The translations under genes and the position numbers were made by a program. The notes under the pieces were generated by a model. The model made no database searches. It was not told the origin of the DNA and saw only the letters and a program-made list of their open reading frames with translations. 64,000 bases of DNA from a virus, in the IMG/VR virus record IMGVR_UViG_3300044614_002617, positions 1 through 64,000 of that record. The stretch is one strand, 5' to 3'. Position 1 is the first letter of the stretch. Each line of letters starts with the position of its first letter. Shown here in pieces: positions 13,890 through 60,878 of the stretch.

Positions 13890-16421
13890 ATGTCAAATAT
13901 TCGTCAATATTTACCATTAATTGCAAAACCAAACAAAGAACAAGCACCTAGGCTAAATGCTTTGATAGACGGCGTCGATGATATTGTCAGCCATCTTGAA
14001 AATTACACAGAATATGCGCAAAATCAGTTTTTCTTCACAACGGCTGATGCTGAGTATGTTTTTAAGCTTGCGGCTCGTAATGGTTTTTATCTACCTAGAG
14101 ATGCCGGCCTAAATATTGAGGGCCTTAAGCCGCTTGCCCCCTTGATGATTAATCAGCCAAAGACTTCGTTAGAGATTCTCTTGCGAGTTTTAGAGATTTA
14201 TTTTTCTCAAACCCTTACTAGGCCAAGCGTTATTTCTGCTCAAGCTGAACCGTATCGTCTCAAGGAAAAAGACGATTTAATCATAAAGACAAGAGATGCG
14301 GAACATCGCTTAACTATTGATAAAACTATGTTTTCTAATATCAAAAACGTATCTGCTTCGGAATTGGCAACTTATATAAATTCTGTACAAGATCACTATA
14401 TTGCAACTGTTTTTTACGATAGAACCGCAGAAAAAAACAAGATTCGCTTGATGCCAAGCGGCTCTGGCCTCAACGAAATTATTCAGGTTACCGGCGGCAC
14501 TCTTCAAAATCTTTTACTTTTTCCAAATGTTATTCCAACTACAAACTCATTTCAAACTCGATGGTTTGTTTCTAAGATAGCCGATCATTCAGACATAGTG
14601 ACTTTTACATATATGGATGGGCCTCCACCTTCAACGCATTTAGCAAAAGTAGGCGATATTGTTACTATTAGAGGTCAGTTTGATGTAGGTGCGTCTGGAG
14701 CTGTTCAGGTGCCAGTTCAAGATATCTTTGGAAACGACGTAATCGACAATAATGGCAACTTGGTAACAATATTAATTTATTTAATTGAAGGCAATTATTC
14801 TGTACTAAACGGCACCCACGAAATTATTGAGGTTGGGTATAACTACTTTAAAATCAGAAACAAATACTTAAGATTGCCTAACAGCAATAACGGAGAAATC
14901 GTACAACTCTCCACGAGAGATGTTATTTTTACAGAAAACACGCCACACAGAGTCTACGATCAGGAAACATTTTCGTATATTACAGAAATGACGGACGATG
15001 AGCTAAACGTCACTGTTCCGGCAGTTCCTCCAATTGTAAAACGATTTTTGCAAGGCGCTTGGCATGCCTATGGCGCAAGATATTTGGTTAATGACTTTAC
15101 AAGAAACACTGTAAGAATTGATATTTTCTCAAGTGTCCAGATACCTCCACAAGGGGTCAGTTTTGTTTTAGATTCTGGATTATTTGCGGCAAATTATGCT
15201 CAAAAAAAATACAAGATACTAAACACTAACCCCTCCAATGGGATTGTAACGCTGGATACTTCGGATGAATACGGAGTCTTACCGTATACAACCCCTGCCC
15301 TTATCGGCAAAAACAACCCATTTTTTTGCGACTTAGAATCAAATACCGTTGAGGTGGATTTTAATTATCGGCATGGGTTGGTTGTGGGCTCAGAGATAGT
15401 GATTAATGCCGCTGCGATAAATCCAGAAAGCAACATAAATATAAACGGCTCTTGGGTAGTCGATAAGGTTTTGTCTGATACAAAAATTTCTTTTAAATTA
15501 AACGAGAAAAACATAGCACCCCCATCAAGTAGTGCAGCTGTTTTGTTTTCTTTAGGGGATAAGAAATATCGTTTACAATTTCCTTCTGCCATGACTCTTA
15601 ATTTATCAAAGATAAACGTAATTGGTAAAAAATTTAAGCTATATGAAGACGGTACAGCAAATGTTTTTAATACATACGCTTGGCAAAAATTAAAAACCAG
15701 ATACCTTATAGTAACTAGCGTAGGCGCAACGAGCATAGAGTTTGAGGTAATGGAAAATTGGTCTGTTGTGCCAAATGAACTTATTGCTGCAAATGTAAGA
15801 ATACAAACAACTCAGACCAACTGGGGAGAAGACAACTCTTCTTATTATTTCGACAAATCTGCCGCCCGAAACCAAGAAGTTTTTATAAACGGCCTGATAA
15901 TGACAATTGCTGACTACATTAAGCCAAACAGTCCTTTGTATTTAGGTTCTTATTTGTATGACCCTCAAGGGAAGGTTAATAGATACTTGCCCAGCGCAAT
16001 TGGAACTATTAGCCAAGCCCCTGTTTTGAGAGGCGAAAGCGGAGTTTTGGTAACCGTTGACTCAGCAGCTGAGTTTAATCAAAATGGCGGATATGTCGTA
16101 TTTGAGTATGGAACGGCAGTTCAAGAAGGGCCAGTTCCTTACATAACTCTTTCGGGAGGCCAGATTGTTATTGATCCTGCTTATGTTTTTAAAAAAACAC
16201 ACTCAAAGGGAGCTACCGTTAGGCAGGTGGAAATCCTAGAGCCGTTTATACCATCCACTAACGGCTTAATGTTTCAGCCATTTTTGACGGGAACGTCAAA
16301 AGCAAGAGACAGTTTTTTTGAAATTATCAAAACGATAATTTCCGCTGGAGTTTTTGTTACAGACGATGTATTGTATCCAAAGCTGCGATTTGCTGACGAA
16401 AGTATTGAGCCATACAAGTAG
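13890..16421 (+). CDS. Baseplate wedge/structural protein (gpI/gp7-like)
   Basis: Follows the J-like gene. N-terminal 'QFFFTTADAEY..KLA' and C-terminal 'IISAGV' patterns, with an internal 'HGLVVGSEIVI...NGSWVV' beta-barrel repeat. ATG 13890 is preferred as start. Confidence 0.55.
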   Translation: MSNIRQYLPLIAKPNKEQAPRLNALIDGVDDIVSHLENYTEYAQNQFFFTTADAEYVFKLAARNGFYLPRDAGLNIEGLKPLAPLMINQPKTSLEILLRVLEIYFSQTLTRPSVISAQAEPYRLKEKDDLIIKTRDAEHRLTIDKTMFSNIKNVSASELATYINSVQDHYIATVFYDRTAEKNKIRLMPSGSGLNEIIQVTGGTLQNLLLFPNVIPTTNSFQTRWFVSKIADHSDIVTFTYMDGPPPSTHLAKVGDIVTIRGQFDVGASGAVQVPVQDIFGNDVIDNNGNLVTILIYLIEGNYSVLNGTHEIIEVGYNYFKIRNKYLRLPNSNNGEIVQLSTRDVIFTENTPHRVYDQETFSYITEMTDDELNVTVPAVPPIVKRFLQGAWHAYGARYLVNDFTRNTVRIDIFSSVQIPPQGVSFVLDSGLFAANYAQKKYKILNTNPSNGIVTLDTSDEYGVLPYTTPALIGKNNPFFCDLESNTVEVDFNYRHGLVVGSEIVINAAAINPESNININGSWVVDKVLSDTKISFKLNEKNIAPPSSSAAVLFSLGDKKYRLQFPSAMTLNLSKINVIGKKFKLYEDGTANVFNTYAWQKLKTRYLIVTSVGATSIEFEVMENWSVVPNELIAANVRIQTTQTNWGEDNSSYYFDKSAARNQEVFINGLIMTIADYIKPNSPLYLGSYLYDPQGKVNRYLPSAIGTISQAPVLRGESGVLVTVDSAAEFNQNGGYVVFEYGTAVQEGPVPYITLSGGQIVIDPAYVFKKTHSKGATVRQVEILEPFIPSTNGLMFQPFLTGTSKARDSFFEIIKTIISAGVFVTDDVLYPKLRFADESIEPYK

Positions 16422-38890: not shown

Positions 38891-39328
38891 ATGTCTGAAC
38901 ACGAAAAAATAGTAGAAACGCTGCTTGGTCGCAAAAGTAGATTGATTGCTGGTTCTAAGTCAGGCTATAGACGCCGTCATCCCAAAAACCTTATTTGCTT
39001 TAATGCGAATGTAGTCGTTGAGGGCTTGGGCAAGGTTTGGTATGGAGACTTGGACATTACCTTAGACGAGGCCTTGTTGGTTAGGCTGGCTCAGCTTCTT
39101 GAGAGAGAAGTTTATGTGCTCCAAGAGATGGACGGGCGGTTTGACAATGAAGAAGCACCTAAAGTTGAAAAGGCTGTATATAAGGTTGCCAAAATACCTT
39201 TTTTAAGCTGGCATGTGTACGAAGGTGAGATTCGCATTGAATATTATGAAAGAAGCAAGAAGAGCGGCGTTATTCAAGAAAAATCAAAAAAACAGATAGA
39301 CAAGATTATAGAAAGGCTTAAAGAGTAG
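38891..39328 (+). CDS. Conserved phage hypothetical protein
   Basis: 'GSKSGY...FNANV...KVWYGDLDIT.D...YVL.E.DGRF' pattern. GGAG RBS. Confidence 0.6.
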   Translation: MSEHEKIVETLLGRKSRLIAGSKSGYRRRHPKNLICFNANVVVEGLGKVWYGDLDITLDEALLVRLAQLLEREVYVLQEMDGRFDNEEAPKVEKAVYKVAKIPFLSWHVYEGEIRIEYYERSKKSGVIQEKSKKQIDKIIERLKE

Positions 39329-39382
39329 AGCGGAAAGCAGCTTTTGTTTAAATGAAAACATACTTTTCTTTATGGTGTTTAA

Positions 39383-39997
39383 GTGAAACCAAATCTTCCT
39401 ACAGTGACTCTTATTATTGCTGATTGCGTTGATTACGACAGAGCTAGATTGTCTTTTGAGCACTGTAGGGCGTTGTGTAATTTTGGGGACGCCAAGCTTC
39501 TAACTCACTTTGATACCCAAGATTCTAATGTAGTCAAAATCCCCCCAATCAAGTCTATTGAAGAATACTCTCACTTTATGATCAAAGACTTGGCCAACTA
39601 TTTTGACACTCAGCACGTCTTGGTGGCTCAATGGGATGGGTTTGTTTGGAAGCCAGAGCTGTGGGACAACAAGTTCCTGCAGTACGACTACATTGGCGCT
39701 CCATGGCCTGAGAGCGTTCTATTCAAGGGAGTTCCTAAGCATTTCAACGTCGGTAATGGTGGATTCTCTTTAAGAAGTAAAAGACTTCAAGATTTTTTAC
39801 GAGATGACGATAAGATTACTATGCACAGGGCAGAAGATGTAGCCATCTGTCAGCTCAATAGGGCATACTTGGAAGCCAAGGGGTTTACGTTTGCTCCGTT
39901 TGAGTTGGCCGAGAAGTTTAGTTGGGAATGTTTAGAAATGAGTCCAGCGTTTGGAGTTCATGCTAGGCTAAGGCTTGTTAATAGGAACAAAAGATGA
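39383..39997 (+). CDS. DUF5672-like glycosyltransferase-like (GT-A) protein
   Basis: 'QWDGFV', 'YDYIGAPW', 'VGNGGFSLRS', 'EDV' and 'FGVH' motifs. Confidence 0.75.
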   Translation: MKPNLPTVTLIIADCVDYDRARLSFEHCRALCNFGDAKLLTHFDTQDSNVVKIPPIKSIEEYSHFMIKDLANYFDTQHVLVAQWDGFVWKPELWDNKFLQYDYIGAPWPESVLFKGVPKHFNVGNGGFSLRSKRLQDFLRDDDKITMHRAEDVAICQLNRAYLEAKGFTFAPFELAEKFSWECLEMSPAFGVHARLRLVNRNKR

Positions 39998-40239
39998 TCA
40001 GACTACTACTGTTACTACTATTGGTTGGTTGTGCAACTGCTCCAAAGCCAAAACAGCCAGACTTGTGTGCAACTGTTTATGACCCTCATCTTTGCCTTAT
40101 TACTATTGACAGCACGACATTTGCCGCCCATGGCAGTAATCGTTGTGTTGCTGTTAGAAAGTTAAAAAAAACACTCGAAGAAAGAAACCACAATCCACTA
40201 ATAGTAGAAAAAGCGGAATGCGGAAGAGTCCATGAATAA
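39994..40239 (+). CDS. Lipoprotein with Kazal-like motif (paralog of 20095..20355)
   Basis: Lipobox LVGC and 'CATVYDPHLC...TF...SNRC'. Confidence 0.6.
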   Translation: MIRLLLLLLLVGCATAPKPKQPDLCATVYDPHLCLITIDSTTFAAHGSNRCVAVRKLKKTLEERNHNPLIVEKAECGRVHE

Positions 40240-40417
40240 TCTTTTGCAATTACAGAAAATTTATGATTTGGCAGTTGAGCTGTTCGGCGATAAAAAAACA
40301 GCAAATGAGTGGTTAAATACGCCAAATCATTTATTTTTTGATAAAACGCCGCTTGAGTATGCTCATAGTGTAAACGCTCAGAGTGTTATTGATACGTTGT
40401 TGGAAATGATGTTGTAA
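40232..40417 (+). CDS. Orphan Xre/MbcA/ParS C-terminal (DUF2384-like) antitoxin domain
   Basis: 'AVELFGD...ANEWLNTPN..F..KTPLE' motif. No HTH and no RES toxin nearby. Confidence 0.7.
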   Translation: MNNLLQLQKIYDLAVELFGDKKTANEWLNTPNHLFFDKTPLEYAHSVNAQSVIDTLLEMML

Positions 40418-40501
40418 GTGAAAATGATTTTATGTCTTGTTTATGTTTGAATCTGTGTATCGCAAAGCGACGGTAAACAAATGGGAGCCGGAGGACAAGC
40501 C

Positions 40502-40840
40502 ATGAAAGCCGTTTCAAAGTTTAGTTACATGACTATAGACGGTATCGGTTACTTCGAGCCAGAAGAAGCAATGACCTACGACGAGGCGCTGCAATGGGCA
40601 AAGATACGCGGCCTACGTCTTCTGACTCGTGGTGAGTGGTGTGATTTATGGGACCATAAGGAAGAGTTTAGAAAGAGTTGCCGAAATGCTGTTTATTGGA
40701 CGGCTTCGGTGTGTGCTAATAATGGTCTATATGTGTGGTTCTTTAATGGATTCAATGGGGACCTAGAATCCACCGGTCGTTATGGTTCTTATGTAGTTCG
40801 TGCAGTGCAAGAAGACGCAGAGGCTAATTATGGCTATTGA
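40502..40840 (+). CDS. DUF1566/Lcl-C-like C-type-lectin-fold protein
   Basis: 'MTYDEALQWA...RLLT..E..L...YWTAS...VWFFNG.NG......YVVRAV'. Confidence 0.6.
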   Translation: MKAVSKFSYMTIDGIGYFEPEEAMTYDEALQWAKIRGLRLLTRGEWCDLWDHKEEFRKSCRNAVYWTASVCANNGLYVWFFNGFNGDLESTGRYGSYVVRAVQEDAEANYGY

Positions 40841-40931
40841 AGAACGCATTGAAGTCGCCTGCGACAATGCAGCTTGGTTTGTACACCAGTACCTCGTCCG
40901 ATATGGTTGTTAATTAGGGGGAGTATGGCAA

Positions 40932-41240
40932 ATGAGACGGTCGGAGATGATTGAGCACATTGCACAAGAACTGATTGATGTGGCTGTCGATGAAAGGTCA
41001 CGCAACACAGCGTACCATGGCTACTTCCAACGCAAAGCCGCAGACCTACTGGACATGATTGAGGGGTTTGGGATGCAGCCGCCGTCTGCAGTCTTCGTGA
41101 TAGATTGGGACAGATGGGACCCTGACAGAAAAGAATGGTATCCGAGCAAAGAAAGAATCCACTCGAACAAATGGGAAAACGAGTTATCCAAAGAATTAGG
41201 AGAACTGGTAGAGAAGGAGCCAGAAGATGAAACGAAGTGA
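40932..41240 (+). CDS. MKRS...GMxPP...WE family protein 1
   Basis: Paralogous to 41227 and 41836. GGGGGAG RBS. Confidence 0.65.
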   Translation: MRRSEMIEHIAQELIDVAVDERSRNTAYHGYFQRKAADLLDMIEGFGMQPPSAVFVIDWDRWDPDRKEWYPSKERIHSNKWENELSKELGELVEKEPEDETK

Positions 41241-41451
41241 GCTAGTTAACAAAATAAGTGAATACTTAAAAGAAGCTGGTTATAGTGCTGACATATCAGA
41301 CTACAATACAGTTCACCGGATTGTTTTTTTGGCTGAAATGGAAGGAATGCTTCCTCCAGCAATCAAAGTGCCCACAACCGGACAAGAAGATGGCGAAGTT
41401 TTTGAGCTAAACCTGCTAGTTAATGAGTGGGAGCCGGAGGAAAAACAATGA
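41227..41451 (+). CDS. MKRS...GMxPP...WEPE family protein 2
   Basis: Paralogous motifs. Overlaps both neighbours. Confidence 0.65.
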   Translation: MKRSELVNKISEYLKEAGYSADISDYNTVHRIVFLAEMEGMLPPAIKVPTTGQEDGEVFELNLLVNEWEPEEKQ

Positions 41452-41801
41452 ACAACCAACAAGCATTTAATAAGATGGTAAGACACCTGAGAAGACAGAA
41501 TAAACGTAGCTCTAACCAAGACGGCGGGATTTGTAGCTATCGTACTTACGATGGACTGAGGTGCGCGGTTGGTGCCCTGATTCCAAATCGCCTTTACGAT
41601 TCACATATTGAACATCAAACTATTGAATATGCAATGAAAACACATCCCCCTTTGGGTGAATATCTTGCAGGAGTCTCTCTTAACCTAATGAAGCACATGC
41701 AAGAAATACATGACGACGAGCCTGTGGGCAAATGGGAACAGTGCTTTGAGGAGGCTGCAAAAAAGTTCAACCTAACACTTCCGAAGAAAGCACAGAGCTA
41801 G
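41448..41801 (+). CDS. Conserved phage hypothetical protein
   Basis: 'QQAFNKMVRHL..Q...CSYR..DGLRCAVGALIP...QEIHD' pattern. ATG 41448 follows a GGAGG RBS. Confidence 0.6.
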   Translation: MNNQQAFNKMVRHLRRQNKRSSNQDGGICSYRTYDGLRCAVGALIPNRLYDSHIEHQTIEYAMKTHPPLGEYLAGVSLNLMKHMQEIHDDEPVGKWEQCFEEAAKKFNLTLPKKAQS

Positions 41802-41835
41802 CGGAAAGTGACAACAAACGAACGGGAGCCAGAAA

Positions 41836-42264
41836 ATGAAACGCAGTGGCCTACAGCAGATACTTAAAGACAGAATCGAAATGCGCATAAGAGAAGGTCA
41901 TTATGCGTCCGACAATACAGACTATGAAAGATGGGCGTTTGCACATTTTCTCGCGGATGAGCTAATCTCTTTGATTGAAGAGCAAGGAATGCAACCCCCA
42001 TCTGCCCCATTCCGGGTACGCAATAAACGCTGGAACCCAAAGAAAGAAGAATGGTACGAAATTGAAGAGTGGGCAATGTTAGACCAATGGGAGCCGGAGG
42101 GGGAAGCAACGCCGGATGGTTATGCTAATACTCTGCCAGATGGAGGCACTGCTGTAGGGCAGGGTGAGCCAAGTTTTACCTCTTTTAAAGACCTAACTGA
42201 AGAAGAGTGGGCGGTGCTAGACGAAAGTTTAAAACATGTAGGTCTTAGGACAAAAAATGAATAA
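41836..42264 (+). CDS. MKRS...GMxPP...WEPE family protein 3 (C-terminally extended)
   Basis: Paralogous motifs. The WEPE motif is internal, followed by about 50 extra aa. Confidence 0.65.
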   Translation: MKRSGLQQILKDRIEMRIREGHYASDNTDYERWAFAHFLADELISLIEEQGMQPPSAPFRVRNKRWNPKKEEWYEIEEWAMLDQWEPEGEATPDGYANTLPDGGTAVGQGEPSFTSFKDLTEEEWAVLDESLKHVGLRTKNE

Positions 42265-42532
42265 CAAAATCATTGATGAAATCCTTGATGAATTCGATTT
42301 TGAAAGAGTCCACAAGGTCATGAAGGCACTCAACTGGACTTGGCACGATACAGACGGCGTACCTACCATCGGCGACCTACGACGACAGGCAAGGACACTG
42401 CTGCAGGAACTGCTCAAGCACAACTACTACTGCACAGGTACGGGCGGGCTGTTTGCCTACAGAATAGCCGATACTGTGGGACTGCGATTTGAGGTCACTA
42501 GTTATGAAGTGGAAAAGGATTTGTCGGTATGA
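42257..42532 (+). CDS. Conserved phage hypothetical protein
   Basis: 'FDFERVHKVM..LNWTW....VP....L...AR..L.......TGGL' pattern. Confidence 0.6.
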   Translation: MNNKIIDEILDEFDFERVHKVMKALNWTWHDTDGVPTIGDLRRQARTLLQELLKHNYYCTGTGGLFAYRIADTVGLRFEVTSYEVEKDLSV

Positions 42533-42825
42533 AAGTCTACATCATCTGCTTCGACGGTGACCACATCTGTCATCCCACGGCATTTCTTGACCGAGAGAAG
42601 GCAGAGGAGCGTCTCAGAATTATGCAAGACGAGATGGATGCGGACGCAGATAAACATCAATGCAAGAGTTATTCGCAATGGTACTCGGTGGAGGAGTTAG
42701 AAATGGAACGCCCCATTAAGTTGAGCACCGAAGGTACTTTGAAGTTCCTTGAAATGCTAGACGGACAGGCTGAACCAAACGAAAACCTCAGAAAGGCTGC
42801 ATTGGAATCAGAAGACGCAACTTAA
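42529..42825 (+). CDS. Phage protein with DUF1778 (TacA/AtaR-type antitoxin)-like C-terminal tail
   Basis: C-terminal 'IKLSTEGTLKFLEMLDGQAEPNENLRKAA'. Confidence 0.5.
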   Translation: MKVYIICFDGDHICHPTAFLDREKAEERLRIMQDEMDADADKHQCKSYSQWYSVEELEMERPIKLSTEGTLKFLEMLDGQAEPNENLRKAALESEDAT

Positions 42826-42898
42826 ATTTCACATTTATGAAACTTAGATTACGCACTGACGAAATAATAGCTTTATTCTCTTTTAAAAAGAATAACTA

Positions 42899-42926
42899 TA
42901 AAGTTATATCAATCAGAATCCGATAA
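42899..42926 (+). promoter_or_regulatory. sigma28/FliA-type promoter TAAAGTT...TCCGATAA (N16)
   Basis: Intergenic, followed by a GGGGGG RBS and ATG 42948. Confidence 0.65.
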
Positions 42927-42947
42927 ATAAAACAAAGGGGGGTAGTT

Positions 42948-43127
42948 ATGTTTTACACTATTTCAGCAACGATTGATGACGAAGTTTACGTAGTTGCTAC
43001 AAATGTTCCAGATGACGAGCTTGAGGGCGAGCTACAGCATTTAACCCGCAGACATGCATTTAAGAATGTTGTAAGATTTGAAATAACACAAGAGATTGTT
43101 TTAGATCATTCCCCTATCCTAAAATAA
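42948..43127 (+). CDS. 59-aa hypothetical protein (below ORF-track cutoff)
   Basis: Read manually: MFYTISATIDDEVYVVATNVPDD...HSPILK. Strong RBS. Confidence 0.55.
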   Translation: MFYTISATIDDEVYVVATNVPDDELEGELQHLTRRHAFKNVVRFEITQEIVLDHSPILK

Positions 43128-43155
43128 CTAAAACTTAATTTTAACTTCCATCAAA

Positions 43156-43184
43156 TTGACAAATCTCTAGACATTGCCTATCCT
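43156..43184 (+). promoter_or_regulatory. sigma70-type promoter TTGACA-N17-TATCCT
   Basis: Upstream of an AAGGAG RBS and 43205. Confidence 0.6.
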
Positions 43185-43204
43185 TACTTTAAAGGAGAGG
43201 CGGT

Positions 43205-43507
43205 ATGTCTGATTTGCTTAATAATCTTGATTCGGTCGAACAAAACGCAGAAAAACAACAAGAATTCTTTAAAATGCTAGACGAAATGGTGTCTTCTTAT
43301 GGGCATCTTGTCCTGGAAGTTCAATCCATGGGGCAAAAAATTCAAGAATTAGCCGGACTTGCTCATTGGACAAAAGAACATACTGAGTATCTTTTAGCAA
43401 AAGATGAAGAGTATATGGCAGCCGTTAAAGCATTTATGGACTCAAAGGAGAGCAGCGATGGCAGCGAAGCCGACGCGGTTTCAGCAGACGTGTCCGAGAA
43501 AGCTTGA
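43205..43507 (+). CDS. Acidic coiled-coil hypothetical protein
   Basis: 100 aa with a strong RBS. Confidence 0.6.
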   Translation: MSDLLNNLDSVEQNAEKQQEFFKMLDEMVSSYGHLVLEVQSMGQKIQELAGLAHWTKEHTEYLLAKDEEYMAAVKAFMDSKESSDGSEADAVSADVSEKA

Positions 43508-44105
43508 AAAGCTTCCATCGACACACTGCCCACTAGCCGTAGAGTCTATCGAAGCAATCAAGGCGGGACAGCCAGACAAAGTCACCTGTCCTTTCTTTGT
43601 TAACGACATGCATTCTAATTATTGCTTTTGGAAATTTATGGATGAGGACGGCGAGGCTATTGACTCTGCCCGCAGGATTGCACAGCTTAATGTTATACAA
43701 GAAGCAGAAGTCAAAGAAATCATTTCAAATACCGCAAAAACTATTTTAACAACGGTAGATGTAGAAGATGTTCAGCTTTTTAAAGAATCAGTCTATGAGG
43801 CCATGCCAGAAGCGTCTTATGATATTTACACTCAAGAATCGTGGGTGGAAGAAGTTGTAGGAGCGGAAGGTCTGCCACAAGAGCCGGGCAAACCGGGACG
43901 TAAAAAGAAGGTTAAAATTCAAGCACCTAAGGGGTTTTCGGGTGGACATGCTCTGCATAAGTCGGGAAAGAGAACTCAGTTGACAGGACTGTCTTCTAAA
44001 TGGCACGAGCACGTTAAGGAGTTTCAAAAAGGCGATACACCTATCCGTATGTCTTCTAATACTATGACAAAAAAGAAGAAAGACGAAAAAGATGAAGACG
44101 CATGA
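43458..44105 (+). CDS. Cys-rich protein with possible sigma-region-4-like HTH
   Basis: 'CPRK...CP...CPFF...NYCFW' followed by 'RRIAQL...EAEVKEI..NT.K'. ATG 43458 follows an AAGGAG RBS. Confidence 0.45.
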   Translation: MAAKPTRFQQTCPRKLEKLPSTHCPLAVESIEAIKAGQPDKVTCPFFVNDMHSNYCFWKFMDEDGEAIDSARRIAQLNVIQEAEVKEIISNTAKTILTTVDVEDVQLFKESVYEAMPEASYDIYTQESWVEEVVGAEGLPQEPGKPGRKKKVKIQAPKGFSGGHALHKSGKRTQLTGLSSKWHEHVKEFQKGDTPIRMSSNTMTKKKKDEKDEDA

Positions 44106-59483: not shown

Positions 59484-60878
59484 ATGTTTTTTAATAATGC
59501 CGTTGGTGTGCTAGCAACACAAAAAGCAACTGAAACAGAAGAAAAAATTACATCTTCTATAACAAAAACAATGACATCCGCATACGTACCTCAAAGTATT
59601 AAAGTTTGGGGCACTGGCGGGGGAGCCGGTGGAGCCAATGGAGCAAATGGGGCAAATGGTAATACCGGCGGCTCAGGAGTAAACGGAGGTACCGGTATAG
59701 CTGGATCCGGAGACAGCGGAGGTCGTGGCTGGTCGAGCGGCGGATACGGTTACGGTGGAGCCGGCGGAGCTGGCGGAGCCGCTGGCAACGGAGGAGCAGG
59801 CGGAGCCGGTGGAGCAGGCGGAGCAGGCGGTGGAAAAGGATCCGGAAATTTAAATAATTACATTTCTGAAAATTACAATACATATGATTTTTTTTCTGAT
59901 TTTATTGGCGGGGTTGATATCGCAATTGTTGTTGGAAACGGAGGGAACGCTCAAACAAACGGAAGTTCATCTGGCCTAAGTGTTAATGGGGTTCAAAAAA
60001 TTATGTATTCAGGTGGGCTCATAAACCAATCACCTGGAACGCCGGGAGCAAACGGAACAAACGGTACGGCTGGCAGCGGCGGAGCCGGTGGAGCCGGGGG
60101 TGCGCTCGTCGGAGGATCTGGAGTAAATGGCGGAGGCGCAGGAGGAGGAAGTGGCGGAGCTGGTGGCAGCGGACGAGGAGCCGGTGGAACCGGGGGCGCC
60201 GGTGGGATTGGTGGAAGCAAGAACATTGGTTTCGTCTTAAATGGTATAGAATACGGAACCGGGGGCGCCGGTGGTAACGGGGGCGCCGGTGGTAACGGTG
60301 GAATTGGTGGACTTGGTGGAAATGGCGGAAATGGCGGAAATGGTTATGGAGGGGGAGGCGGAGGACAGTCTGTTTATCAAACAGACTTTTGGTACTCTTA
60401 CGCTGGAAACTCCGGAGGTTGGGGCTGGGGCGGCGGCGGCGGTAGCGGGGCGGCTGATATCTTCGCAGCTTTACCTGGAGGAAACGGAGGCTCTTCGGTA
60501 AATGGATACAGTGGAGGAGCCGGAGGTGTGCTTCCGCCTAGTAGTTATGGAGGGGGAAGCGGAGGCGGCGGCGGTGCCGGCTCCGGCGGAAATGGCGGTG
60601 GCGGTGGCGTTGGGTATTATTCAGGAGATGTGTACTATCCGGGCGGCGGAGGCGGCGGTGGCTGGGGCGGCGGAGGAAATGGCGGACGAGGGCAAGGATA
60701 TTTGGGGCCATACTCCGGGGGCTCAGAAAGCGGCTATGGCGGAAGCGGTGGAGGATACGGAGGAGCAGGCGGAGCCGGGGGTGCTTCTGGTGGGGCAGGA
60801 ACATCCGGAACTGCCGGTCAAGCTGGACAAGCTGGCAAAAATGGCATAATAATTATTAGATATAAAGTGTTTGAGTAG
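59484..60878 (+). CDS. Glycine-rich (GGxGGx) adhesin-like protein
   Basis: Extensive GGAGGAGG/GGNGG runs interspersed with aromatic loops. C-terminal 'GIIIIRY'. Confidence 0.7.
   Translation: MFFNNAVGVLATQKATETEEKITSSITKTMTSAYVPQSIKVWGTGGGAGGANGANGANGNTGGSGVNGGTGIAGSGDSGGRGWSSGGYGYGGAGGAGGAAGNGGAGGAGGAGGAGGGKGSGNLNNYISENYNTYDFFSDFIGGVDIAIVVGNGGNAQTNGSSSGLSVNGVQKIMYSGGLINQSPGTPGANGTNGTAGSGGAGGAGGALVGGSGVNGGGAGGGSGGAGGSGRGAGGTGGAGGIGGSKNIGFVLNGIEYGTGGAGGNGGAGGNGGIGGLGGNGGNGGNGYGGGGGGQSVYQTDFWYSYAGNSGGWGWGGGGGSGAADIFAALPGGNGGSSVNGYSGGAGGVLPPSSYGGGSGGGGGAGSGGNGGGGGVGYYSGDVYYPGGGGGGGWGGGGNGGRGQGYLGPYSGGSESGYGGSGGGYGGAGGAGGASGGAGTSGTAGQAGQAGKNGIIIIRYKVFE

Follow-up and report, generated by a model that had tools for sequence, protein, structure and literature searches.

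A C-terminal phage protein motif overprinted with the predicted ribosome-binding site of the neighbouring gene

An undescribed family of small (60-100 aa) phage proteins has WEPE as its C-terminal anchor. The codons of this motif very probably carry, overprinted, the ribosome-binding site (RBS) of the neighbouring gene, and homology between phages starts and stops at three anchors of the family, namely its start, GMxPP and WEPE. The window analysed is a stretch of 64,000 nucleotides belonging to a virus record of 110,367 bp. Within it, a 1.8-kb stretch is a scarred, high-turnover array in which 3 intact family members stand together with 3 tail relics and 2 truncated passenger genes (Table 1).

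Results

A repeated 13-mer in an array of small genes

The 13-mer TGGGAGCCGGAGG is made of the four W-E-P-E codons plus the initial G of the following codon. The search returned three exact copies in the window, all on the + strand and where the original prediction had placed them, and these are the only sites with fewer than 2 mismatches. With up to 3 mismatches allowed, 28 sites were found, against a mean of 7.1 after dinucleotide shuffling, and as none of 100 shuffles reached 28, a chance origin of the repeat is excluded. Counted over the whole 110,367-bp record at no more than 1 mismatch, the motif still has 3 matches, that is no copy beyond the window (reversed control, 0). The two variants predicted at 41214 (AAGGAGCCAGAAGATGAAACGAAGTG) and 41823 (CGGGAGCCAGAAAATGAAACGCAGTG) are present as well, and came out of a repeat search as a single pair, 86% over 29 nt.

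Table 1. Features of the array (positions in the window)
Feature	Position	Strand	Remarks
Relic 1	40443..40505	+	final 20 codons (MFESVYRKATVNKWEPEDKP) of a family member; ATGA overlap with next gene
13-mer copy 1	40482..40494	+	WEPE codons; GGAGG 7 nt 5' of ATG 40502
Passenger gene MKAVSKFSY..., 112 aa	40502..40840	+	weak Lcl_C-like match
Truncated passenger gene MAIEERIEV..., 27 codons	40830..40913	+	L005 counterpart has 126 codons
Paralog A	40932..41240	+	GMQPP 41070-41084; own motif WENE 41172-41183
Passenger N-terminus remnant (ELSKELGELVE)	41181..41213	+	MKPELSKE-type; in-frame part of A's tail
Relic 3 / junction variant 1	41214..41240	+	KEPEDETK*, a decayed WEPEDETK* tail
Paralog B	41227..41451	+	GMLPP 41344-41358; tail WEPEEKQ*
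13-mer copy 2	41428..41440	+	WEPE codons; GGAGG 7 nt 5' of ATG 41448
Passenger gene MNNQQAFNK..., 117 aa	41448..41801	+	phrog_17693, E=1.3e-14, a PHROG of unknown function
Relic 2 / junction variant 2	41802..41848	+	...TTNEREPENETQ, a decayed family tail, TGG to CGG
Paralog C	41836..42264	+	GMQPP 41986-42000; WEPE 42088-42099; 54-codon extension 42100-42261
13-mer copy 3	42088..42100	+	no start codon after it; frame runs 54 codons further
Passenger gene MNNKIIDEILDEFDFE..., 91 aa	42257..42532	+	start overlaps end of paralog C by 8 nt
Passenger gene MKVYIICF..., 98 aa	42529..42825	+	TacA1-like tail

Three full paralogs had been announced, and three are found (A, B and C), with a mutual identity of 26-36%. 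The two C-terminal relics also exist, and relic 1 even scores in the family HMM (E=0.0016, with the later HMM). Its stretch 40458-40492 matches at 83% the tail of the L005 5001 gene, and its peptide resembles ...FMFEDVYRKI.VNEWEPEDKQ of proteins P0046, P0055 and P0077. One assignment had to be revised: KEPEDETK, previously taken for paralog A's own motif, is a third relic, A's motif being WENE, and at the corresponding position L161 keeps the intact form AATGGGAGCCAGAAGATGAAACGAAGTGA. Just before this relic, the remnant of a passenger N-terminus matches at 88% L008 810-842, the start of the L008 802-1104 gene. Relic 2 accompanies the MNNQQ gene in L122, L161 and L165; in L161 the MNNQQ reading frame runs on into the relic, which thereby forms the end of the protein.

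Relatives of the passenger genes were found in several other loci. Homologs of the 40502..40840 gene (Pfam PF07603, E=0.009, under the cutoff) occur in L005, L008 and L162, where the preceding gene is unrelated and ends ...GDKQ*; homology to the window begins there at 40494 (L005, L162) or 40499 (L008). The MAIEERIEV gene is full length at L005 6838-7218, homology to the window stopping at 40907. The MNNQQ gene also stands after other family tails in L122 and L165, and homologs of the 42257..42532 gene adjoin family genes in L008, L163 and L165. The MKVYIICF gene, whose product matches PF08681 with E=4e-4 and 20.7 bits for a cutoff of 21, has two copies in L005, each after a family gene. Comparison of two passenger proteins with viral sequences gave just two relatives, both already found.

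Promoter-like sites inside the array (6 for 11.1 expected) and terminator-like sites (5 for 5.9 expected) are without excess, which rules out a promoter or terminator element as the nature of the repeat.

Copy 3 of the 13-mer differs from the others in that the frame continues, and modules similar to the extension of paralog C (...D.ALEH.G...) are found in other family members. L163, which has the same C module, ends WEPEDEE*, with CCGGAGG 7 nt before a start. At this site L161 and L162 have TGGGAACCGGAGT, in which 2 of the 13 bases differ.

The identity of the three 13-mers might simply be the trace of a recent event among the paralogs, a duplication or a gene conversion, and be devoid of functional meaning as DNA. 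All three sites are in paralogs, within a span of at most 1.6 kb, and 40473-40506 matches 41419-41452 at 79% over 34 nt. However, identity ends at the 13-mer, its flanks being at 79% and 65% over 34 nt, the paralog proteins are just 26-36% identical, and the same rare codons are repeated in another genome, L163, exactly where the ATG is 20 nt off. Such an origin is disfavoured, and we give it very little credit.

Codon choice at WExE tracks the distance to the next start

A start codon for the next gene had been predicted at four of the five motif sites; it is there at 40502, 41227, 41448 and 41836, and lacking at 42088. The ATGs at 40502 and 41448 lie 20 nt past TGG, are preceded by GGAGG at 7 nt and form ATGA stop/start overlaps (40502-40505, 41448-41451). 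Those at 41227 and 41836 lie 13 nt past the first base of a decayed W codon, with GGAG at 7 nt, supplied by relics 3 and 2 respectively; relic 3 overlaps paralog B by 14 nt (41227-41240). A further overlap, of 8 nt, is found at 42257-42264. All four Shine-Dalgarno (SD) sequences are inside the upstream ORF. SD-like cores precede 64 of 133 ORFs, compared with 4 and 8 at control offsets.

Codon choice was tabulated for 45 junctions with DNA, the motif filter of the table leaving aside six HMM matches (two with WTPE, one with WEEG, one with a terminal KWED, one whose WEPE is too far from GMxPP, and a weak one). Codon choice at WExE tracks the distance to the next gene's start. When the ATG is 11-14 nt past TGG, the first Glu codon is GAG in 16 cases and GAA in 3 (16/19), compared with 106 GAG among 346 Glu codons elsewhere in family genes (binomial p=2e-6) and with 12 GAG and 11 GAA at the other junctions (Fisher p=0.048), bearing in mind that junctions within one genome are non-independent and that G012 gives 6 identical ones in this class. 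When the ATG is 20-21 nt past TGG, it is the second Glu codon that is GAG, in 6 of 6 junctions, placing GGAGG or GAGGAG 7 nt 5' of the ATG; the proportion is 2/20 in the 11-14 class (p=1e-4) and 7 GAG for 11 GAA in the far class (p=0.016). The Pro codon is CCG in the 4 junctions out of 4 with the ATG at 20 nt. For the set as a whole, L161 is a 93% relative of the window. L165 can do without GAG, as TGGGAA stands at three of its junctions that have the ATG at +13.

We conclude that the motif doubles as WEPE codons and as the predicted SD of the following gene, as originally proposed. Could the identity of the 13-mers be mere conservation of the WEPE peptide, the overlap with an RBS being incidental? 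The peptide is indeed well kept: WExE is found in 238 of 242 GMxPP-bearing proteins, also where no gene follows (4 such cases, all ending WEPED..., 2 of them with GAG), and W has one codon only. Against this, genome codon usage (GAG 0.315, CCG 0.158) predicts GAG-CCG-GAG for E-P-E at ~0.016 per site, and it is seen in 3/3; codon choice varies with the position of the start across genomes; and the relics drop the W codon (to AAG or CGG) yet retain GGAG. Since synonymous sites follow the next start, conservation at the protein level alone fails to explain the DNA identity, and a purely peptide-based reading is very unlikely.

Family genes are arranged in tight runs, with the predicted SD and start of the next gene written within the last codons, and the downstream genes would be translated from these sites. 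There are two main layouts. In the first, the ATG lies 13 nt past TGG, inside the D-E codons, and TGG-GAG gives GGGAG at 7 nt from it; whenever a family member comes next, the start anchor ATGAAACGNAGTGA also supplies the upstream stop, producing tails like -DETK*. In the second, the ATG lies 20-21 nt past TGG with an ATGA overlap, and CCG-GAG-G or CCA-GAG-GAG gives GGAGG 7 nt upstream. The three exact copies would share the rare GAG-CCG-GAG because all belong to the second layout or descend from it. For copy 3, which no start follows, the codons would be explained only by descent from an L163-like form.

At the start anchor, 34 of 38 genes have AGT for Ser. In 21 of the 38, the TGA within AGTGA ends an upstream ORF of at least 40 codons; by table reading, about 11 of these 21 upstream genes are non-family, and they end in -ETK or -ETQ. 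AGT is also found in 14 of the 17 genes whose anchor TGA ends no upstream ORF of at least 40 codons.

An undescribed family of small phage proteins

Family members begin with MKRSEM and end with WExE plus a short acidic tail; in between lies GM(Q/L)PP, which separates an N module from a C module, both of them variable. The N module looks helical. A 7-member profile retrieved 274 proteins at E<=1e-3 from a set of 5.8 billion proteins, and a 118-member profile 3,798 of 1.84 billion cluster representatives at the same threshold (194 at E<=1e-10). Among 246 members compared, GMxPP is present in 242 and W[ED]x[ED] in 238, at most 8 residues from the C-terminus in 206; the usual spelling is WEPE (158), followed by WEDE (30) and WEKE (13). 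All 16 viral records examined have the family, with 1-7 matches apiece. A degenerate start-pattern search of viral contigs gave at least 120 stretches, with family genes recognised by HMM in at least 12 loci, at least 10 of them in further records. In the present genome, the family HMM recovers paralogs A, B and C only.

Searches in reference collections were mostly negative. No Pfam family matched the three paralogs at E<=0.1, PHROGs v4 gave no significant match (marginal E=0.002-0.0075 for 2 of 118 members), and the best E-value of the family among PDB sequences was 0.48. Paralog A, compared by tblastn with 50,697 phage records, had no match, nor had 39000-44000, compared by blastn with phage records, and the ESM Atlas yielded nothing of use. 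A search of 8,000 candidates of 260-2000 aa for longer fused forms was negative at E<=0.001, which is weak evidence. The exact junction pattern had 0 matches in bacterial and archaeal genomes; a looser one had 2, neither of which scores in the family HMM, and gave no clue to the host. Our literature search found no paper treating WEPE in phage, and nothing specific on C-terminal composition bias from an overlapping SD.

As to function, one may guess that these small proteins are host-directed or serve in counter-defence, and that they are under pressure to diversify. Precursor peptides of a RiPP-like system, with recognition motifs flanking a hypervariable core, were also considered, given the small multi-copy genes, the hypervariable 20-35-aa segment between two fixed motifs, and a 2OG-Fe(II) oxygenase gene after one member in L149. 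But the would-be leader, the N-terminal part, is itself hypervariable (17 clusters), no modifying enzyme recurs beside the arrays in the loci read, and the variable segments are not Cys/Ser/Thr-rich by eye, so that this idea is hardly credible.

Modules and passenger genes are exchanged

GMxPP is the point at which N and C modules reassort. Clustering of 114 full-length proteins gave 17 N and 43 C clusters, which occur in 67 combinations, and all four combinations of N1/N2 with C1/C2 are found; in these counts the module parse shortened the WDRWD-type C module, and single linkage at 50% lumps N clusters. The original prediction had taken GMxPP as a family signature, which it is, but it is not merely that, being with 28 homology-block ends among the most frequent exchange points. 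In L165, the N module of paralog C is joined to the C module of B, with an overlap zone of 16 nt at the G-M codons. G012 has a 368-nt internal duplicate, at 91%, which begins at GMxPP, takes in a passenger gene and stops at the following family start.

The ends of homology blocks were mapped within family genes +-40 nt. Anchor zones, which make up 44% of that space, contain 94 of the 101 ends, and the interior of the N module none for 26% expected, a contrast whose p-value is overstated, local alignments tending by construction to stop at conserved anchors. The sole DNA common to this genome and G002, an otherwise unrelated phage, is an 811-bp cassette (window 41444-42254, 95%), limited 4 nt 5' of one start and 3 nt 5' of the next. 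In both L122 and L165, the tail QA[GR]DTGDEQ* and the MNNQQ gene come directly after WEPE, the C module before it being a different one in each, and P0034 (protein only) ends with the same tail. At least 3 different tails and partners are found past the WEPE of a single C module. Reassortment of N and C modules takes place at GMxPP, and exchange of passenger genes at the tail and start anchors.

Is the motif a crossover site?

The original prediction also held that recombination takes place at the junction motif. Its first half stands, as alignment of related phages reveals changes in gene content at junctions; its second half is no more than a possibility, as homology, where a downstream gene is shared, begins 1-9 nt before its ATG and not at WEPE.

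In the wider form of this reading, the junction motif and the other anchors would be real crossover sites, where short-homology recombination between copies excises, inserts or swaps genes and modules in a PeSL-like manner, and recombination may be part of the reason why the anchors are conserved as DNA. The clustering of block ends at anchors, the block joined to different C modules in L122 and L165, the various partners of one C module, the crossover zone of L165 and the anchor-bounded duplicate of G012 all go in this direction. So do the synonymous-site conservation of the start anchor and the 23-26 identical bases that connect otherwise unrelated genes. Also in favour, a putative RecA/UvsX-like protein gene, recognised by sequence reading, lies beside the array in L005 and L163. 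In L161, an HNH endonuclease gene adjoins the array.

On the other hand, runs of exact match through the anchors are short (medians of 8 nt at the start, 4 nt at GM and 6 nt at W), reaching at least 12 nt in 24%, 5% and 8% of pairs, respectively. GMxPP is without synonymous-site conservation, so nothing suggests its upkeep as a DNA signal. Moreover, at least 8 scars end off any anchor, as expected of illegitimate events after which the SD is retained: in the window relics 1, 2 and 3, the truncated MAIEE gene and the ELSKE remnant, and in relatives a fusion inside a passenger gene in L163, a relic in L161 and an MNTELSKE remnant in L005. Finally, survivorship is just as good an explanation of the clean joints, since chimeras would persist only if they are in frame and have a working RBS. 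We hold crossover sites at the anchors to be possible, but less likely than not.

The relics differ in length: their breakpoints are scattered 5' of the motif, and the SD-bearing tail alone is always retained. This points to illegitimate events, after which selection preserved the RBS, and the scars would then have arisen by illegitimate or microhomology recombination filtered by RBS retention.

Discussion

Several known systems resemble this array in part. PeSLs are reportedly treated by Comeau et al. (2014) as mobile regulatory cassettes of T4-type phages. According to Arbiol et al. 2010 (PMC2839356), the PeSL is an intergenic element that acts on transcription and combines, over ~100 bp, a terminator stem-loop and an early promoter of sigma70 type; PeSLs flank small non-essential genes in hyperplastic regions, and indels or replacements between relatives coincide with them. 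Excised mini-circles are a further trait of such cassettes. As with PeSLs, short repeats flank small genes here, gene changes between relatives coincide with them (94/101 block ends at anchors), and the element carries the expression signal of the gene with which it travels. Unlike PeSLs, the present elements are of 13-34 nt, are coding and provide translation signals (SD, start, stop), and the array has no excess of promoters or terminators.

The boundary-sequence or modular view of mosaicism and that of illegitimate recombination are reportedly discussed by Clark (2001) and Hendrix, and a paper on Rad52-like relaxed recombination is said to bear on phage mosaicism. PMC3974807 sets conserved boundary sequences and modularity against illegitimate recombination plus selection. 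A short conserved stretch at a gene boundary joining otherwise unrelated flanks is common to both cases, and so is the question whether crossover is targeted, or breakage random and then filtered by function. With respect to those boundary sequences, ours differ in being a protein motif overprinted with the start and stop of the neighbour, and in coming from a single multi-copy family whose genes alternate with passengers.

The gp38 adhesins of T2/T6-like phages, according to Trojet et al. 2011 (PMC3157838), have glycine-rich motifs separating hypervariable segments. The parallel lies in fixed short motifs around interchangeable hypervariable segments. We found no sequence relation; gp38 is a virion adhesin of known role, whereas the present family has two modules and lies in accessory gene runs.

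In CDI modules the joint is marked by the VENN motif. The orphan cdiA-CT/cdiI and rhs-CT modules, according to Poole et al. 2011 (PMC3150448), are fragments with a conserved joint and a variable end that stand beside full genes, and modules move between systems, as seems to be the case here. Those are large toxins with immunity partners, and the fragments retain the upstream joint; the present relics retain the downstream tail, because it carries the RBS of the next gene.

Translational coupling in compact operons commonly involves an SD inside the upstream ORF and an ATGA or longer stop/start overlap. The array junctions have both, and coupling is predicted; in contrast to ordinary coupling, the coupling site is a family-wide protein motif, constrained on three levels, that recurs as a repeat. 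With integron gene cassettes, which are marked by an integrase gene and attC recombination sites, the likeness is in the cassette logic only, the repeat here being coding.

One short sequence answers to three constraints, the protein motif, the RBS and start of a neighbour and the stop of a neighbour, and few natural cases of this are so clean. The family of small phage proteins now delimited is very large, and is absent from Pfam, PHROGs and solved structures, and from a cultured-phage collection searched with one member. For annotation, recurrent -ETK/-ETQ protein ends and tiny WEPE ORFs are to be read as overprinting and scars.

A further idea, which we find rather doubtful, is that the three anchors form a self-contained, integrase-free cassette system, in which family genes and passengers alternate, each passenger starting in the preceding WEPED tail and stopping in the following ATGAAACGNAGTGA. 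If this were true, translation signals would come ready-made with every passenger or protein half moved by a crossover between anchors, and the system would be a combinatorial library of small host-directed proteins as well as a route to the capture of foreign genes. With its many reassorted modules, passengers and dated-looking relics, the family offers a good test bed for an old question of phage evolution, whether mosaic joints are targeted to short sequences, or random and then selected.

The array and its junction repeat

The virus record is 110,367 bp long, with an estimated completeness of 67%, and the window is its first 64 kb. The exact 13-mer TGGGAGCCGGAGG, made of the WEPE codons plus the next G, was confirmed at 40482, 41428 and 42088, and the pair of longer variants (41214 and 41823) matched their earlier description. 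A genome-wide count added no site with fewer than 2 mismatches in the window, or with at most 1 mismatch in the genome. Dense near matches at 59620-60781 (GG(A/C)GCCGG(T/G)GG and similar, spaced 9-90 nt) belong to a glycine-rich repeat coding region, unrelated to the WEPE family.

From 38.9 to 42.8 kb, every gene lies on the + strand with tight packing (see the table), and promoter-like and terminator-like sites inside the array showed no excess over shuffled expectation. Across the genome, an HMM of the family, built from eight members, detected paralogs A, B and C only; a later family profile scored relic 1, a leftover gene tail, at E=0.0016. An 81-aa ORF at 39994-40239 begins with MIRLLLLLLLVGC, which on inspection resembles a lipoprotein signal with a putative lipobox.

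Features of the gene array (window positions)
Feature	Position	Strand	Remark
Mini-ORF, relic 1	40443-40505	+	
Passenger gene MKAVS...	40502-40840	+	
Stump of gene	40830-40913	+	126 codons long in L005
Paralog A	40932-41240	+	
Paralog B	41227-41451	+	
Passenger gene MNNQQ...	41448-41801	+	phrog_17693, no assigned function
Relic 2	41802-41848	+	
Paralog C	41836-42264	+	
Further passenger gene	42257-42532	+	
Further passenger gene	42529-42825	+	

Codon choice at the junctions

From 44 distinct HMM hits, 38 family junctions with DNA were tabulated, six hits being left out by a motif filter independent of their result; seven junctions from metagenome loci brought the total to 45 (locus L162 was omitted as a duplicate of L161). 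In the commonest layout, found at 20 of the 45, the next ATG lies 11-14 nt after the T of TGG. Its typical form is TGGGAGCC(T/A)GAAGATG, in which the W-E codons provide GGGAG, followed by seven bases and an ATG within the D-E codons. The first Glu codon of this class was GAG in 16 cases, GAA in 3 and replaced by Asp GAC in 1, compared to 106 GAG among 346 Glu codons in the rest of the family genes (p=2e-6), and to 12 GAG and 11 GAA at the other junctions (Fisher p=0.048). All three GAA cases come from one locus, L165, and count against a strict GAG rule. When the ATG is 20-21 nt after TGG (six junctions, two in the window and one each in L161, L163, L005 and L008), the second Glu was GAG in 6/6, against 2/20 in the near class (p=1e-4); the far class has 7 GAG to 11 GAA (p=0.016 for the comparison). 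At exactly 20 nt, Pro was CCG in 4/4, giving CCGGAGG. Since GAG makes up 31.5% of Glu and CCG 15.8% of Pro codons in the genome, ~1.6% of random WEPE would be spelled GAG-CCG-GAG. Shine-Dalgarno (SD)-like cores precede 64 of the 133 genome ORFs, versus 4 and 8 at control offsets. We conclude that the predicted double role of the motif, as WEPE codons and as SD of the next gene, is well supported, codon choice tracking start distance.

A protein-level constraint on WEPE, separate from the SD constraint, is also real; four members without a following gene still end WEPED..., with GAG in just 2 of the 4. Conversely, relics that have ceased to code for protein have lost the W codon and kept GGAG. 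The 41214 site reads AAGGAG, with TGGGAG retained in L161, and the 41823 site reads CGGGAG (W codon lost, GGAG kept).

The third copy (42088) has no start codon downstream. In L163, the same C module as that of paralog C ends in WEPEDEE and a stop, spelled TGGGAACCGGAGGACGAGGAATG, and the next start lies 20 nt further along, so that paralog C most likely took over CCGGAGG from an L163-like form prior to gaining its extension. L161 and L162 read TGGGAACCGGAGT at this site, meaning that the 13-mer itself is not conserved there. Paralog C also contains a 24-nt direct repeat (42064-42087 and 42202-42225, 83% identity), whose first copy, immediately ahead of WEPE, codes for EEWAMLDQ and whose second, within the extension, codes for EEWAVLDE; this suggests that the extension comes partly from duplication of the segment ahead of the motif.

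The start anchor

The start anchor ATGAAACGNAGTGA is nearly invariant, and is dual-use as well. Its Ser codon is AGT in 34 of 38 genes, and in 21 of the 38 the TGA within AGTGA is the stop of an upstream ORF (40 codons or longer). About 11 of these 21 upstream genes (table read by eye) are non-family, and their products end in -ETK or -ETQ because their stop sits inside the AGTGA of the family start. In the viral genome G012, family genes alternate five times with unrelated passengers, all five of which start within a WEPEDE tail, and in 4 of 5 pairs stop within the next family start. At this locus (L156, about 64-66.5 kb), an identical 16-mer, TGGGAGCCTGAAGATG, is present at all five junctions; the passengers include an Imm5-like one (E=6e-6) and a pair of zinc-ribbon-like paralogs.

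Reassortment of modules and cassettes

Among 123 proteins, two were left out for want of GMxPP and seven as partial or without motif; the 114 full-length ones were cut at GMxPP and the halves clustered at 50% identity. This gave 17 N and 43 C clusters in 67 combinations, numbers that are approximate, one C type having been cut short by the parse and N1 lumped by single linkage. All four combinations of N1/N2 with C1/C2 were found, and the sequences make the reticulation itself evident. All-against-all blastn of 19 array loci yielded 206 merged HSP ends, 101 of them within family genes ±40 nt. Anchors received 94 of the 101 (start 29, GMxPP 28, tail 37), the 40-nt flanks 5, the C-module interior 2 and the N-module interior 0, with anchor zones occupying 44% of the family genes plus flanks; these counts are descriptive only, as ends are non-independent and alignments stop at conserved patches by construction.

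L005 matches the window at 89% from 3 nt before the ATG of paralog C through the last GMQPP base, and not past it. L165 joins the N module of C to the C module of B, across a 16-nt zone (GAAGGAATGC region) matching both partners. G012 carries a 368-nt internal duplicate (91% identity) that begins 15 nt before GMxPP, spans a passenger gene and ends 18 nt into the family start that follows.

Whole genes are exchanged too. In the 14.8 kb compared of G002, a 34-kb fragment, only window 41444-42254 is shared with this genome (95%): the MNNQQ gene, relic 2 and paralog C. This block opens 4 nt ahead of one ATG and closes 3 nt short of the following one. Three upstream arrangements of the MNNQQ gene were seen. 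It follows the tail of B, WEPEEK(Q/K) and stop, in the window and L161; in L122 (the G002 locus) it follows another C module, whose tail is WEPEQAGDTGDEQ and stop, and in L165 a third C module, WEPEQARDTGDE and stop. The switch point is always directly past WEPE, and P0034, known from its protein alone, ends likewise. Ahead of the MKAVS gene lies relic 1 in the window, and in L005 and L162 an unrelated 141-142-aa gene ending ...GDKQ; in these two loci, homology to the window begins at 40494. In L122, the C-like paralog is followed by a non-family gene (14262-14507, no GMxPP) with an internal KWEPKW and the ending CLQNAWEPKKEEEK; a 38-nt stretch of this gene matches, at 87%, the tail region of the family gene that lies two positions upstream of it.

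In three relatives (L161, L163 and L005), the array is directly downstream of a RecA/UvsX-like gene block. Here that block (73-76% identity, 93,260-95,711 of G000, this genome) lies ~50 kb away on the other strand, so array or block has moved. In L161, an HNH_3 endonuclease gene (1926-2249, E=1e-11) is directly upstream of a B-like family gene, separated only by a 20-odd-nt WEPEDETK relic; a homing endonuclease could boost local exchange. Two related ~155-kb phages carry tandem repeats (L150 1133-1389, L156 6595-6784), visible as numerous overlapping HSPs at 75-91% and situated 45-300 nt ahead of the start of a family gene.

Scars and the mode of exchange

Relic 1 corresponds to the C-terminal 22 residues of a module that P0046, P0055 and P0077 carry intact. 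The tail of paralog A is composite: its own WENE, then eleven codons of an MKPELSKE-type passenger N-terminus (88% to L008 810-842), then a decayed WEPEDETK and stop. In L163, a passenger broken mid-gene has been fused out of frame with a family gene at (G)MQPP, and the family gene that comes next is still fed by the tail of this fusion. A short stump, MNTELSKE..., is present in L005. Scar endpoints are scattered, and the constant element is that the SD-bearing tail is kept.

The original prediction had genes swapped by recombination at the junction motif. The swapping holds, gene content switching directly after WEPE ahead of the MNNQQ gene; the mechanism may be either targeted short-homology crossover or random breakage with selection, since the data are compatible with both. 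We regard targeted exchange as a possible, rather doubtful candidate for the main process: conservation of the start anchor well above protein need and the runs of 23-26 identical bases linking unrelated genes speak for some guidance by homology, whereas identity runs through the anchors are short for a purpose-built recombination signal (medians 8, 4 and 6 nt), and GMxPP lacks synonymous-site conservation, yet ranks among the three most frequent joints.

Of the systems described so far, PeSL-mediated shuffling in T4-type phages (PMC2839356) comes closest, and it follows the same logic. PeSLs, as presented there, are intergenic promoter and terminator elements, whereas the WEPE and start anchors are coding and carry SD, start and stop. 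Close parallels are also offered by accounts of the gp38 GRM/HVS architecture (PMC3157838), of orphan cdiA-CT modules (PMC3150448) and of the debate on boundary sequences versus illegitimate recombination (PMC3974807).

The protein family and its setting

A seven-member profile retrieved 274 proteins at E<=1e-3; with 118 members, 3,798 representatives of 1.84 billion were retrieved at E<=1e-3 and 194 at <=1e-10. Nearly all members are 60-100 aa long. Among 246 collected, G[MI]xPP is present in 242 and W[ED]x[ED] at least 8 residues past it in 238, at most 8 residues from the C-terminus in 206 and with longer extensions in 32; the tail is spelled WEPE in 158, WEDE in 30 and WEKE in 13. Paralogs A, B and C matched no Pfam family, PHROGs gave only marginal matches for 2 of 118 members, the best E-value against PDB sequences was 0.48, tblastn of paralog A found no match in 50,697 phage records, and a literature search found no paper with both 'WEPE' and 'phage'.

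All 16 viral records examined contain the family (1-7 matches per record). They include complete genomes of 62, 82, 96, 157 and 163 kb, therefore the family is spread across several phage types. In L150 (2326-2760), a member with a very short C module and WEPEE is fused to a Sigma70_r4-like (sigma-70 region 4) helix-turn-helix domain (E=2.8e-5, 24.0 bits for a cutoff of 24.1). Near the array, at 40232-40417, is an Xre/MbcA/ParS-C antitoxin-like domain (E=4.9e-9), one passenger has a TacA1-like tail that scores slightly below the Pfam cutoff, and neighbours and passengers also include an Imm5-like protein, an HNH endonuclease and a 2OG oxygenase. The setting of the family thus looks like an accessory or counter-defence one.
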